NCBI RefSeq assembly: GCF_003334405.1
Contig: NZ_QOWM01000005.1
Origin: Escherichia coli
GTDB lineage: Bacteria; Pseudomonadota; Gammaproteobacteria; Enterobacterales; Enterobacteriaceae
Reading direction: 5' to 3' (one strand)
DNA: 64,000 bases
The translations under genes and the position numbers were made by a program. The notes beneath the pieces are model-generated. The model had not been told where the DNA came from. It saw only the letters and a list, made by a program, of their open reading frames with translations, and searched no databases. This document shows positions 17,587 through 37,815 of this stretch, piece by piece (the stretch's first letter is position 1; the number at the start of each line of letters is the position of its first letter).

Positions 17587-18939
17587 TTATTTCCAGATAC
17601 GTAATTGATCGTCCATTGTAACTTCTTTACTGGCTTTCATTTTCGGCAGTGAAAACGCATACCAGTCGATATTACGAGTCACAAACATCATGCCGGCCAG
17701 CGCCACCACCAGCACACTGGTTCCCAACAACAGCGCGCTATCGGCAGAGTTGAGCAGTCCCCACATCACACCATCCAGCAACAACAGCGCGAGGGTAAAC
17801 AACATGCTGTTGCGCCAGCCTTTCAATACCGCCTGCAAATAAATACCGTTCATTAACGCCCCAATCAGACTGGCGATTATCCATGCCACGGTAAAACCGA
17901 TATGTTCAGAAAGCGCCAGCAAGAGCAAATAAAACATCACCAATGAAAGCCCCACCAGCAAATATTGCATTGGGTGTAAACGTTGCGCGGTGAGCGTTTC
18001 AAAAACAAAGAACGCCATAAAAGTCAGTGCAATCAGCAGAATGGCGTACTTAGTCGCCCGGTCCGTTAATTGGTATTGATCGGCTGGCGTCGTCACTGCG
18101 ACGCTAAACGCGGGGAAGTTTTCCCAGCCGGTATCATTGCCTGAAGCAAAACGCTCACCGAGATTATTAGCAAACCAGCTGCTTTGCCATTGCGCCTGAA
18201 AACCTGACTCGCTAACTTCCCGTTTGGCTGGCAAAAAATCACCTAAAAAACTGGGATGCGGCCAGTTGCTGGTTAAGGTCATTTCGCTATTACGCCCGGC
18301 AGGCACCACAGAAAGATCGCCGGTACCGCTTAAATTCAGGGCCATATTCAGCTTCAGGTTCTGCTTCCGCCAGTCCCCTTCGGGTAAAGGGATATGCACG
18401 CCCTGCCCGCCTTGCTCTAACCCGGTGCCGGGTTCAATGGTCAGCGCCGTTCCGTTAACTTCAGGCGCTTTCACCACACCAATACCACGCGCATCCCCGA
18501 CGCTAATCACAATAAATGGCTTGCCAAAGGTGATATTTGGCGCGTCGAGTTCGCTAAGACGCGAAACATCGAAATCGGCTTTTAGCGTTAAATCACTGTG
18601 CCAGACCTGACCGGTATAAATCCCTATCTTGCGTTCTTCCACGTTCTGATTGCCATCAACCATCAATGACTCAGGTAACCAAAAATGGATAAAACTTCGT
18701 TTCCGCTCCACGGTTTTATCCTCTTCCTGTACCGTATAAAGCTCGGTCACAGGAATAGCGATAAGCGGCCCAACGAGTTTTTGCGGCCCGCTGGTACTTT
18801 GGCGAATCGCATCTTCCACATCGCTACGGTAATCGGCACGTTCGACAATCACCTGCCGAATCAGCATTATCGGAATCAACAACAGCAATACGGCACCAAA
18901 CAGGGTGGTCATTTTCCAGAACAGGGGGGATTTCAACAT
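17587..18939 (-). CDS. creD: Inner membrane protein CreD, 450 aa
   Basis: ORF track translation; last gene of the creABCD cluster. Confidence 0.93.
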   Translation of the reverse strand: MLKSPLFWKMTTLFGAVLLLLIPIMLIRQVIVERADYRSDVEDAIRQSTSGPQKLVGPLIAIPVTELYTVQEEDKTVERKRSFIHFWLPESLMVDGNQNVEERKIGIYTGQVWHSDLTLKADFDVSRLSELDAPNITFGKPFIVISVGDARGIGVVKAPEVNGTALTIEPGTGLEQGGQGVHIPLPEGDWRKQNLKLNMALNLSGTGDLSVVPAGRNSEMTLTSNWPHPSFLGDFLPAKREVSESGFQAQWQSSWFANNLGERFASGNDTGWENFPAFSVAVTTPADQYQLTDRATKYAILLIALTFMAFFVFETLTAQRLHPMQYLLVGLSLVMFYLLLLALSEHIGFTVAWIIASLIGALMNGIYLQAVLKGWRNSMLFTLALLLLDGVMWGLLNSADSALLLGTSVLVVALAGMMFVTRNIDWYAFSLPKMKASKEVTMDDQLRIWK

Positions 18940-32946: not shown

Positions 32947-33963
32947 ATGTCCACATTACGCCTGCTCATCTCTGACTCTTACGACCCGTGGTTTAACCTG
33001 GCGGTGGAAGAGTGTATTTTTCGCCAAATGCCCGCCACGCAGCGCGTTCTGTTTCTCTGGCGCAATGCCGACACGGTAGTGATTGGTCGCGCGCAGAACC
33101 CGTGGAAAGAGTGTAATACCCGGCGGATGGAAGAAGATAACGTCCGCCTGGCGCGGCGCAGTAGCGGTGGCGGCGCGGTGTTCCACGATCTCGGCAATAC
33201 CTGCTTTACCTTTATGGCTGGCAAGCCGGAGTACGATAAAACCATCTCTACGTCGATTGTGCTCAATGCGCTGAACGCGCTCGGCGTCAGCGCCGAAGCG
33301 TCCGGGCGTAACGATCTGGTGGTGAAAACAGTCGAAGGCGACCGCAAAGTCTCAGGCTCGGCCTATCGCGAAACCAAAGATCGTGGCTTCCACCACGGCA
33401 CTTTGCTGCTCAATGCCGACCTTAGCCGCCTGGCAAACTATCTCAATCCGGATAAAAAGAAACTGGCGGCGAAAGGCATTACCTCAGTGCGTTCCCGCGT
33501 GACCAACCTCACCGAGCTGCTGCCGGGGATCACCCATGAGCAGGTTTGCGAGGTCATAACCAAGGCCTTTTTCGCCCATTATGGCGAGCGTGTAGAAGCG
33601 GAAATCATCTCCCCGGACAAAACGCCAGACTTGCCAAACTTCGCCGAAACCTTTGCCCGTCAGAGTAGCTGGGAATGGAACTTCGGTCAGGCTCCGGCAT
33701 TCTCGCATCTGCTGGATGAACGCTTTAGCTGGGGCGGCGTGGAACTGCATTTCGACGTTGAAAAAGGCCATATCACCCGCGCCCAGGTGTTTACCGACAG
33801 CCTCAACCCCGCGCCGCTGGAAGCCCTCGCCGGGCGACTGCAAGGCTGCCTGTACCGCGCGGATATGCTGCAACAAGAGTGCGAAGCGCTGTTGGTTGAC
33901 TTCCCGGACCAGGAAAAAGAGCTACGGGAGTTGTCGACGTGGATAGCGGGGGCGGTAAGGTAA
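32947..33963 (+). CDS. lplA: Lipoate-protein ligase A, 338 aa
   Basis: Translation begins [57 protein letters not shown]... Confidence 0.96.
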
Positions 33964-33994
33964 CTCGCTGATTAAAATACCAAAGGAAGGGAAT

Positions 33995-34258
33995 ATGATC
34001 GATCTGGAAAACCAGGAGCGGGAGATTATCAATTTAATGTTAAGCCAGCGTATTTCCTGGCTAGCCGCCGTGCGTATCAGGCATAAATTATCGCTTGCTG
34101 AAGTAAGTAAAATGTTAGGTATCTCGATTAATTCTCTAAAACAGATCGAAAAGACGGAACGGCTTAGCTCAAACATCAAAAGCAAAATGGCAGAAATTTA
34201 TGGTTGTCCACCAGAGTTGCTGATATGCCCTTCCTGGATGACGGCTGAACATAAATGA
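33995..34258 (+). CDS. Hypothetical small DNA-binding protein with Cro/C1-type HTH motif, 87 aa
   Basis: ORF with a good Shine-Dalgarno (aaggaagg) 6 nt upstream of the ATG; residues LSLAEVSKMLGISINSLKQIE fit an XRE-type helix-turn-helix. No family assignment possible without a search. Confidence 0.5.
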   Translation: MIDLENQEREIINLMLSQRISWLAAVRIRHKLSLAEVSKMLGISINSLKQIEKTERLSSNIKSKMAEIYGCPPELLICPSWMTAEHK

Positions 34259-34355
34259 ATAGATTCGTGAATAGATACTTGAATGGATTTTATTTTCTAT
34301 CCATATGAAAAATAATAGTAAATCTATAAATCAGTTGCTATTGATGAATAGATAC
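34257..34355. repeat. Three direct copies of GAATAGAT(A/T)C (34257-34266, 34269-34278, 34346-34355) in an AT-rich segment
   Basis: Read directly; two copies abut the stop of the 87-aa ORF, the third sits just before the deoD terminator. Confidence 0.6.
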
Positions 34356-34386
34356 TAAAAAGCCGGAGCAGTCTCCTGCTCCGGCT
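34356..34386 (-). terminator. deoD rho-independent terminator (stem agccggagcag/ctgctccggct, U-run on minus strand)
   Basis: Perfect 11-bp stem with 4-nt loop about 30 bp downstream of the deoD stop, followed by TTTTT on the minus strand. Confidence 0.75.
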
Positions 34387-34418
34387 TAACACGACGTTCG
34401 CCTTTCAGCGAAACACAA

Positions 34419-35138
34419 TTACTCTTTATCGCCCAGCAGAACGGATTCCAGTGCGATTTTGATCATGTCGTTGAAGGTGGTCTGACGCTCAGCGGCAGTG
34501 GTCTGCTCGTGAGTGCGGATGTGGTCAGACACGGTGCAGATGGTCAGGGCTTTCGCGCCAAACTCTGCAGCGACGCCGTAGATACCAGCCGCTTCCATTT
34601 CCACGCCGAGGATGCCGTATTTTTCCATCACGTCGAACATTTCGCCGTCCGGAGAGTAGAACAGGTCAGCGGAGAACAGGTTACCCACGCGAGCATCAAC
34701 ACCCAGTGCTTTAGCCGCGTCTACCGCGTTACGCACCATGTCAAAGTCAGCGATAGCGGCAAAGTCATGGTCTTTAAAACGGATACGGTTAACTTTGGAA
34801 TCGGTGCAGGCACCCATACCGATAACGACGTCGCGCAGTTTTACGTGCGGCAGAACTGCGCCACAGGAACCCACGCGGATAATTTTCTTCACGCCGAAAT
34901 CGGTGATCAGTTCTTTGGTGTAGATGGAGCAGGACGGGATACCCATACCGTGACCCATTACGGAAATTTTGCGGCCTTTGTAAGTACCGGTGAAGCCCAG
35001 CATACCGCGAACGTTGTTCACTTCACGGGCATCTTCAAGGAAAGTTTCAGCAATATACTTCGCACGCAGCGGGTCGCCTGGCATCAAAACTACGTCAGCG
35101 AAATCGCCCATTTCTGCATTAATGTGTGGGGTAGCCAT
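34419..35138 (-). CDS. deoD: Purine nucleoside phosphorylase DeoD, 239 aa
   Basis: Translation begins [69 protein letters not shown]... Confidence 0.97.
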
Positions 35139-35163
35139 TGTTTTATCCTTATCAACATGTTTT

Positions 35164-35200
35164 CACCCTCTCCCTGTGGGAGAGGGCCGGGGTGAGGGCA
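35164..35200. repeat. GC-rich palindromic element (ccctctcc CTGTG ggagaggg, then ccggggtgaggg) in the deoB-deoD gap
   Basis: Inverted repeat read directly; resembles a dispersed small GC-rich repeat family but membership cannot be confirmed here. Confidence 0.4.
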
Positions 35201-35217
35201 TCAAGCCGCACCCATTA

Positions 35218-36462
<1,245 letters not shown>

Positions 36463-36492
36463 TCAAATTTAAATGATCAGATCAGTATACCG

Positions 36493-37815
36493 TTATTCGC
36501 TGATACGGCGATAGACAGTTGGTGTGCTTTCCGGTGCTTTATCGGCAAGTTTAATTGCCGCTTTCACCGCTTTCGCCGCTTCCTGCCAGCTGTTTTCGTC
36601 TTTCGCGTGGATAACCGCCAGCGGACGCTGACCGTCTACCTGGTCGCCCAAACGCGCCATATCAGTAAAGCCGACGCTGTAATCAATGGTGTCAGATGCC
36701 TGACGACGACCGCCGCCCATTGCAACCACTGCCATCCCCAGCGCGCGGGTATCCATTTCACTGACAAAACCTTCGGTATCAGCATAGACTGCTTTCGTCA
36801 GCATCGCTGTCGGCAGATACTTCGCGTAGTTCTCAACGAAGTCGGTCGGGCCTTTTTGTGCCGCTACCATACGACCAAAGACTTCTGCCGCTTTACCGTT
36901 GTCCAGCACCGCCTGCAATTTCGCGCGCGCTTCGGCGTCATCTTTCGCCAGTTTGCCGGAGATCAGCATCTCCACGCACAGCGCCATCGTGACATCAAAC
37001 AGACGCGGGTTACGATATTCACCCGTCAGGAACTGCACCGCTTCACGAACTTCAACCGCGTTACCTGCACTGGAGGCCAGTACCTGATTCATGTCGGTGA
37101 GCAGCGCGGTGGTGCGCACGCCAGCGCCGTTAGCCACGCCAACAATCGCTTCGGCAAGGGCTTCAGAGAGTTCGTAGGTCGGCATAAACGCGCCGCTACC
37201 CACTTTCACGTCCATCACCAGCGCGTCCAGACCTTCCGCCAGTTTCTTCGCCAGAATAGAGGCGGTGATCAGCGGGATGGAGTCCACGGTTGCGGTAATA
37301 TCACGGGTCGCGTAGAAACGTTTATCCGCCGGAGCCAGTGAGCTGGTCTGACCGATAATCGCCACGCCGACGTCTTTAATAATTTCGCGGAAACGGTTGT
37401 CATCCGGGAAAATGTCGAAGCCAGGGATGGATTCCAGTTTGTCGAGCGTACCGCCAGTATGACCGAGGCCGCGACCGGAGATCATCGGAATATAGCCGCC
37501 GCAGGCTGCGACCATCGGCCCCAACATCAGCGAAGTCACATCGCCGACGCCGCCGGTGGAGTGTTTATCAACAATCGGGCCATTCAGATGCAGGCTTTTC
37601 CAGTCGAGAACGGTTCCTGAATCTCGCATCGCCATGGTCAGCGAGACACGCTCAGGCATTGTCATATCGTGGAAGAAAATGGTCATCGCGAGGGCGGCAA
37701 TCTGCCCTTCGGAGATAGTGTTGTCGCGAATACCGTTGATAAAGAAACGAATTTCTTCATCGCTTAGCGCATGACCATCACGTTTTTTACGAATAATTTC
37801 TTGTGCGAGAAACAA
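36493..37815 (-). CDS. deoA: Thymidine phosphorylase DeoA (apparent TTG start), 440 aa
   Basis: Translation begins [51 protein letters not shown]...; complement of positions 37813-37815 reads ttg. Confidence 0.95.

Follow-up and report, generated by a model that had tools for sequence, protein, structure and literature searches.

In the 64,000-nucleotide stretch of Escherichia coli DNA analysed here (contig NZ_QOWM01000005.1, referred to below as the window), the genes deoB, encoding phosphopentomutase, and deoD, encoding purine nucleoside phosphorylase, are separated by an intercistronic spacer and followed by the terminator of the deo operon (Table 1). Positions 34400-36450 are 100% identical to several complete E. 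coli genomes in which both genes are annotated. The initial annotation had placed a nested, GC-rich palindrome at positions 35164-35200 of the spacer. A string search located caccctctccctgtgggagagggccggggtgaggg at 35164-35198 of the + strand, so the palindrome lies where it had been described, whereas the repeat unit turned out to be longer than proposed (~35158-35216). The repeat search revealed a perfect 9-nt inverted repeat (CCCTCTCCC and GGGAGAGGG, with a 3-nt loop), a direct repeat (GGGAGAGGGC and GGGTGAGGGC), and the recurrence of the purine block as GGGTGAGGG. It also showed an outer imperfect repeat of 13 nt (35163-35175 and 35183-35195, 77% complementary), which corresponds to the pairing named nested. 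The 21-mer core was found 0 times in 100 dinucleotide-preserving shuffles of the window. When the 59-nt element was folded as DNA, z-scores of -4.3 (+ strand) and -3.9 (- strand) were obtained, and none of 200 shuffles was as stable. A chance palindrome is excluded, because the core is absent from the window shuffles and the fold of the element beats the shuffled sequences. The nested palindrome in the operon spacer is thus borne out by repeat search, shuffling, and folding.

Table 1. Features of the deoB-deoD spacer and its surroundings; positions refer to the window, except in the last row, where they refer to loci of related species.
Feature	Position	Strand	Remarks
deoB (phosphopentomutase)	35218-36441	-	100% identity to annotated E. 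coli genomes
deoB TGA stop	35218-35220	-	TAA next, in frame
deoB-deoD intercistronic spacer, BoxC allele, 79 nt	35139-35217	-	unlike the 56-nt K-12 spacer
Full BoxC unit, type B (very probable)	35158-35216	+ (G-rich strand)	antisense to deo transcription; covariance model match, flanks shared with K-12
Conserved left end of type-B units	35160-35165	+	TTTTCA here, TTTTCT/TTTTCC in K-12; in the mRNA, GAAAA after the hairpin
Pyrimidine block Y1 CCCTCTCCC	35166-35174	+	5' arm of main hairpin
Loop 1 TGT (mRNA ACA)	35175-35177	+	TGA in a common E. coli variant (Table S8 no. 108)
Purine block R1 GGGAGAGGG	35178-35186	+	3' arm of main hairpin; first two G-tracts of the G-quadruplex motif
Loop 2 CCG	35187-35189	+	mark of type B; type A has TTA (definition: PMC4666352)
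Purine block R2 GGGTGAGGG	35190-35198	+	potential third strand; 9/9 allowed purine-motif triads against R1
Terminal small hairpin GGGTG-AG-GGC-ATCAA-GCC-G-CACCC	35190-35213	+	tail conserved in other type-B copies
deoD Shine-Dalgarno AAGGA	35146-35150	-	unpaired in predicted fold; last paired base 26 nt upstream of ATG
deoD (purine nucleoside phosphorylase)	34419-35138	-	100% identity to annotated E. coli genomes
Canonical intrinsic terminator, end of deo operon	34360-34387	-	12-bp stem and T-run; terminator scan
Further BoxC copies beyond the deoB stop, in relatives	L018 1475-1595; L042 2118-2178; L043 6764-6824; L038 2064-2122; L021 1032-1092		

Judged from its sequence, the palindrome is very probably the core of a solo type-B BoxC element, a non-coding dispersed repeat of roughly 56 bp located in the deoB-deoD spacer. 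BoxC was reportedly described by Bachellier, Hofnung, and co-workers in the 1990s, and the PIT element is said to have been described by Hoyne and Maher in 2000/2002. According to PMC4666352, the TMECO motifs are the same elements as the BoxC repeats of the 1990s and as Hoyne and Maher's PIT (potential intrastrand triplex) elements. The 34-mer CCCTCTCCCTGTGGGAGAGGGCCGGGGTGAGGGC of the window is identical to MG1655 TMECO nos. 1 and 4, both type B (Table 1 in Holder et al., 2015; PMC4666352), and the 21-mer GGGAGAGGGCCGGGGTGAGGG is identical to the HPG2 consensus (Kaplan et al., 2016; PMC5100583). The order CCCTCTCCC-TGT-GGGAGAGGG-CCG-GGGTGAGGG is that of the three-block BoxC/PIT/TMECO motif, with a perfect stem of 9 bp. 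In the register check, all nine triads (G.G:C, A.A:T, T.A:T) are among those allowed in a triplex. On the + strand, GGGAGAGGGCCGGGGTGAGGG fits the canonical G3-N3-G3-N2-G4-N3-G3 pattern (regular expression) and contains the four G-tracts that define HPG2. The whole element lies inside the spacer, in agreement with the intergenic location of BoxC/PIT/TMECO repeats.

The ends of the unit were considered by lining up the window copy with 15 K-12 copies, from which a unit length of ~54-59 bp results; a length of 56 bp is quoted for BoxC (PMC2267715). The window copy and the K-12 type-B copies have the flanks TTTTC... and ...CATCA(A)GC(C)GCAC in common, and the right tail is CATCAGCGCGCAC-like in the latter and CATCAAGCCGCAC in the window. 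A covariance model was built only from the 15 K-12 BoxC copies, with the deo copy excluded, and the whole window was searched with filters off. The model matches 35158-35216 (+) over its full length (model positions 1-61, 52.5 bits, E 5.6e-16). The next-best match (18358-18408, 13.7 bits) lies inside an ORF, is not BoxC-like, and was rejected. A scan of positions 34000-37000 with Rfam 15 at E up to 10, a collection that holds no family for BoxC, gave chance-level matches only; the sole one overlapping the element is mir-320, with 18.6 bits against a gathering score of 55.5. A sub-threshold CyaR match on the + strand (34305-34391, 21 bits against a gathering score of 47) covers the deo terminator hairpin and is probably merely that hairpin.

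No second BoxC copy was found in the 64-kb window by mismatch search, regular expressions, or the unfiltered covariance-model search, and because of this single copy the window by itself could not show dispersal. In a genome-wide search for copies, a check that the initial annotation had recommended, a 58-nt query matched 6 places per E. coli genome in the median and 14 at most, as is expected of a dispersed, multi-copy repeat. The alternative named there, a member of a dispersed small-repeat family, was the right one, the family being known as BoxC, PIT, TMECO-B, or HPG2. Published counts of BoxC/TMECO copies range from 19 to 29 in A/B1 strains and from 1 to 2 in B2 strains; for ATCC 8739, which carries the same deo allele as the window, 20 copies are catalogued (PMC4666352). 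The deo copy itself is listed in Table S8 of Holder et al. (2015; PMC4666352), as no. 123 of ATCC 8739 (4021997-4022030), no. 81 of HS, and no. 108 of E24377A. Checking of the positions placed all three between deoB and deoD, no. 108 being the TGA loop variant. The deo BoxC is no new element: its family was described about 30 years ago, and this copy is already known, published by coordinates only and without discussion. The K-12-based lists omit the locus because the MG1655 spacer (56 nt, of unrelated sequence) contains no BoxC copy.

In E. coli the deoB-deoD spacer exists as two alleles, and the deo BoxC copy represents one of them. The BoxC allele was counted with a 161-nt query across the BoxC spacer at a coverage of at least 80% in 5426 complete genomes. 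It is present in 2490 of them, and the 56-nt hairpin spacer in 2934, together 5424 (a 46:54 split). ATCC 8739, HS, C, E24377A, and O103 are among the carriers of BoxC; K-12, O157:H7, and the B2 strains 536, ATCC 25922, and NC101 carry the hairpin. This distribution agrees with the published copy numbers, low in B2 and high in A/B1. Among variants of the BoxC allele, changes fall in the loop (ACA to UCA) and the downstream flank, while the stems are constant. In MB53 (NZ_CP073939.1), an IS200C element (~480-889 of locus L014) located directly 3' of a K-12-type hairpin parts deoB from deoD; this is the only disrupted deoB-deoD spacer among the matches listed, and one further genome matched neither query in full. 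A recent inter-genus transfer of the BoxC allele was considered and finds no support, the ~1-3% divergence of the flanking deoB and deoD from K-12 (200-nt bins) being ordinary for E. coli.

Two further features of the neighbourhood were observed. The hexamer TGATAA stands on both sides of the element on the - strand (35214-35219 and 35149-35154; TC[TGATAA]TGG...BoxC...ATGT[TGATAA]GG). The left one contains the deoB stop and the second in-frame stop, and the repeat is found also in Pseudocitrobacter and not in Enterobacter-type alleles. It could be a target-site duplication or a coincidence; against the former stand the lack of an empty site among 38 spacers and the Enterobacter-type alleles without the TGATAA repeat. 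The other feature lies between lplA (32947-33963, +) and deoD, where K-12 yjjJ/hipH (HipA-family toxin kinase, ~1.3 kb) is missing. There is just a short region (33964-34418), annotated elsewhere as a helix-turn-helix domain gene, and this layout occurs in 4069 of the 5426 E. coli genomes. The yjjJ/hipH and spacer polymorphisms are not tightly linked, since O157:H7 combines the window layout with the K-12-type spacer.

In related species the same spacer was collected by scanning species-representative genomes for the DeoB C-terminus pattern, which gave 37 Enterobacteriaceae loci, with deoD directly after deoB in 36. These 36 spacers hold a simple hairpin in 13-14 cases (one was left unclassified by the script), BoxC in 10, REP in 8, and BoxC together with REP in 5. 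The simple GGGCGG...CCGCCC hairpin is found in E. albertii, E. whittamii, other Escherichia, Kosakonia, Raoultella, and Franconibacter. BoxC alone occurs in Escherichia sp. E1V33 (nearly identical to the window), Pseudocitrobacter, Citrobacter freundii, Phytobacter, and Enterobacter. REPs fill the spacer in Enterobacter asburiae, Citrobacter sedlakii, and others. A strong stem-loop is present in all 38 spacers examined, with the first stem at most 7 nt from the deoB stop, and no spacer is empty. Since the simple hairpin is so widespread, occurring in E. albertii as well as in B2 E. coli, it may be the older state in Escherichia. Its 6-bp core (GGGCGG/CCGCCC) is invariant, loop and flanks vary, and one pair has changed in a compensatory manner from G-C to A-U. 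The orientation of BoxC is uniform, with the G-rich strand antisense to deo in 15 of 15 spacers placed by the covariance model. A 16th (RIT418), judged by the sequence motif of its mRNA strand, has the same orientation, giving 16/16 including the window allele. In these 16 spacers the structure is conserved and the sequence hardly varies (covariation term -0.05, 2 pairs with double changes). Because BoxC is nearly invariant even where the RNA model leaves it unpaired, covariation gives no support to a constraint at the RNA level. Near-invariance fits a constraint at the DNA level, or homogenization among copies of the family, at least as well.

Several arrangements in these relatives are more complex. 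Tandem partial duplications of BoxC occur in the spacers of L017, L041, L050, L038, and L027, where a truncated copy ending in ...CCCTCTCCCACGAGAAAC is followed by a complete one, and BoxC and REP are combined in one spacer in Leclercia, Ent. sichuanensis, and two MAGs. Further BoxC copies lie ~0.8-0.9 kb beyond the deoB stop, near the deoD end, in several relatives. The one at the deoD end of Ent. mori is in sense orientation ~9 nt after the stop, and an inverted pair starts at the stop in Pseudocitrobacter; the window has a plain terminator at this place. In K-12, the two other intra-operon BoxC copies are those of pstA-pstB and yihS-yihR (Table 1 in Kaplan et al., 2016; PMC5100583). Their G-rich strand is antisense as at deo, which makes three of three, a number too small for a conclusion.

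Lying inside the operon, BoxC would be transcribed as its C-rich complement, and the RNA would fold into two hairpins. Folding of the minus-strand transcript, also proposed in the initial annotation, gave -32.1 kcal/mol (z = -3.5) for the 79-nt spacer RNA. The predicted hairpins, of -11.7 kcal/mol (35190-35213, the first after the deoB stop) and about -18.8 kcal/mol, occupy the stretch from 4 nt past the deoB UGA to 26 nt ahead of the deoD AUG, so that the AAGGA Shine-Dalgarno sequence is free. By analogy with REP, such a structured 3' barrier might shield the upstream deoB message from 3'-to-5' exonucleases. Instead or in addition, a hairpin so near the deoB stop codon might interfere with terminating ribosomes. 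To our knowledge, neither stabilizing nor ribosome-stalling activity has been shown for BoxC. For REPs located at most 15 nt from a stop codon, stalling of ribosomes and lowered translation were described (Liang et al., 2015, as cited in PMC12306157). Among the conceivable consequences, a passive, REP-like effect of the deo BoxC on the RNA is the most likely one, though the odds remain against it. It is just as conceivable that the element is a nearly neutral passenger that came to lie in a palindrome-tolerant spacer. The only functional study known for the family reported neither promoter nor terminator activity, and RNA polymerase, reverse transcriptase, and conjugation were unaffected (Hoyne and Maher, 2002, in the summary given in PMC4666352). 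The sequence scan detected no promoter-like or terminator-like site in or beside the deo BoxC, the literature search found no paper after 2016 that gives BoxC/TMECO a function, and a paper on Esr055 was set aside as having no bearing on deoB/deoD intergenic regulation. The 54% of E. coli genomes without BoxC at deo count against a strong function. The deo BoxC is not a terminator, nor is it a dedicated, riboswitch-like regulator.

The terminator reading deserves consideration, as the element places a GC-rich hairpin at a gene's 3' end. The same palindrome was presumed to have a termination role in Enterobacter sp. 638 (Taghavi et al., 2010; PMC2869309), and in the view of Kaplan et al. (2016; PMC5100583), copies inside operons could obstruct RNA polymerase. 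However, the hairpin is followed by no U-tract on the mRNA strand (GGGUGAAAACAUG; tail GUGAAAACAUG), and by none on either strand; the initial annotation, too, had given it no U-run. The terminator scan is silent here, and the same scan reports both the K-12 spacer hairpin and the deoD terminator. PIT elements were inactive as terminators when assayed (Hoyne and Maher, 2002, according to the summary in PMC4666352), and deoD follows in the same operon with its own strong terminator. That an intrinsic (Rho-independent) terminator or attenuator separates deoB from deoD is therefore rejected on the missing U-tract, the missing scan flag, and the inactivity of PIT, and must be regarded as very improbable. 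A REP/BIME element, or a palindrome arisen by chance, has practically no likelihood. The extragenic, GC-rich character of the palindrome and the REPs in the spacer of other species might speak for a REP, but the arms of those REPs (GCCGGGTGGCG...TACCCGGCCTAC) are missing and the BoxC model matches with E 6e-16. The consensus arms (of the GCCGGATG.../...CCGGCCTAC type) are absent on inspection and plainly visible in REP-type spacers, so the earlier statement that this is not a REP holds. A more substantial proposal concerns the DNA itself: the G-rich strand could form an intrastrand purine-motif triplex or a G-quadruplex, which would perturb replication or transcription and make the site a rearrangement hotspot. 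This is supported by the register of nine allowed triads, by the canonical G-quadruplex motif of the + strand, and by the polymorphism of the deo locus. By CD and NMR, family oligonucleotides adopt a stable triplex, and between-strain variability is higher at TMECO loci than at control loci (PMC4666352); a K+-dependent switch between G-quadruplex and hairpin was observed in vitro (PMC5100583). On the other hand, double-stranded TMECO gave duplex only and the in vivo DMS footprint was negative (PMC4666352). At deo, the G-rich strand is the template of transcription and of leading-strand synthesis (negative GC skew of the window, K-12 map), and is for this reason the one least exposed as single-stranded DNA. 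The locus is also not unstable in practice: all but two of the 5426 genomes have one or the other allele intact, and in MB53, the only disrupted one examined, the IS200 insertion lies beside the hairpin allele. The instability of TMECO loci is not evident at deo beyond the two-allele polymorphism, and a role of non-B DNA here is distinctly unlikely.

A selected function of the RNA is a further rival explanation, close to the other alternative of the initial annotation, an RNA-processing or stability element that sets differential deoB/deoD expression. It assumes that a stem-loop directly behind the deoB stop is required in the spacer, that BoxC was co-opted for this purpose, and that the alleles tune the DeoB:DeoD ratio, the K-12 hairpin acting as a leaky terminator and BoxC as a non-terminating stabilizer. 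The presence of a strong stem-loop at most 7 nt from the stop in 38/38 spacers is consistent with such a need, and so is the simple hairpin, which keeps its GGGCGG/CCGCCC stem while loop and flanks are free and which shows a compensatory pair. The alleles also differ in the terminator scan: the K-12/O157/B2 spacer hairpin (GGGCGGAGCGTTGACTCCGCC, then TTGTTATGTC), lying inside deoCABD (L001 1435-1456), is flagged as terminator-like with its 8-bp stem and tail TTGTTATGTC, and the BoxC allele goes unflagged. The uniform orientation of BoxC in 16/16 spacers and the unpaired deoD Shine-Dalgarno sequence of the predicted fold point in the same direction. However, common descent can yield uniform orientation and sequence, and a hairpin in every spacer may reflect a landing preference and not a need. 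Palindromic repeats accumulate in the same permissive intergenic sites. Published assays of the family gave neither terminator nor promoter activity, the Term-seq supplements of Adams et al. contain no entry for deoB or deoD, and no experimental 3'-end data for the K-12 spacer hairpin were found in Term-seq supplements. Taken together, a selected regulatory role appears rather unlikely, its estimate overlapping that of the passive REP-like effect. A broader proposal, that the Enterobacteriaceae spacer requires a post-stop stem-loop for which simple hairpin, REP, and BoxC are interchangeable modules, BoxC being locked in the orientation with its C-rich strand in the mRNA, is still less probable. 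If it were true, then the 46:54 split would be a natural regulatory polymorphism that changes DeoB:DeoD stoichiometry or the decay of deo mRNA, and this would be the first demonstrated cellular function for BoxC.

The preferred reading, a solo type-B BoxC element, has little significance as it stands, the family being ~30 years old and this copy already tabulated. Fresh points are the 46:54 allele split, the replacement of hairpin, REP, and BoxC by one another at a single operon spacer, and the one orientation in which BoxC lies there; they make the locus a test bed and leave existing knowledge unchanged. Thousands of sequenced E. coli strains differ at one operon spacer, with BoxC in some and a terminator-like hairpin in others, which constitutes a clean natural experiment. 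Since strains differ at this one spacer, and related genera fill the slot with BoxC, REP, or a plain hairpin, deoB-deoD is a convenient place to test for any effect of BoxC on mRNA stability, translation termination, and DNA stability.

With BoxC/PIT/TMECO type B the deo element shares the 34-nt core, the CCG of loop 2, the TTTTC and CATCAGCGCGCAC-like ends, the intergenic location, and the multi-copy nature. Nothing structural differs: the deo copy is solo and not part of an inverted A+B pair, its tail is 3 positions apart (GCCGCAC against GCGCGCAC), and it is missing from the K-12 reference site and hence from the K-12-based lists of 23. HPG2 (PMC5100583) is the same family under another name, with an identical 21-mer GGGAGAGGGCCGGGGTGAGGG and the conserved C-rich 5' flank that gives the hairpin. 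At deo, however, the G-rich strand is the template strand, and because the mRNA carries the C-rich complement, no RNA G-quadruplex is possible. The CCCTCTCCC-XX(X)-GGGAGAGGG repeats of Enterobacter sp. 638 (Taghavi et al., 2010; PMC2869309) have the same palindrome with a predominant TGT/ACA loop, and are located at gene 3' ends, at times in duplicate, like those in the Enterobacter deoB-deoD spacers examined. They number ~100 copies as compared with ~20-29 in E. coli A/B1, and the terminator role presumed by the authors is not supported by the deo sequence. With REP/BIME elements (e.g., malE-malF), the deo BoxC has in common that both are dispersed extragenic palindromes transcribed in operons, with a stable hairpin just after the stop codon. 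We know of no RAYT-type transposase or binding protein for BoxC. The two sequence families are unrelated, and in other genera it is REPs that fill the deoB-deoD spacer.
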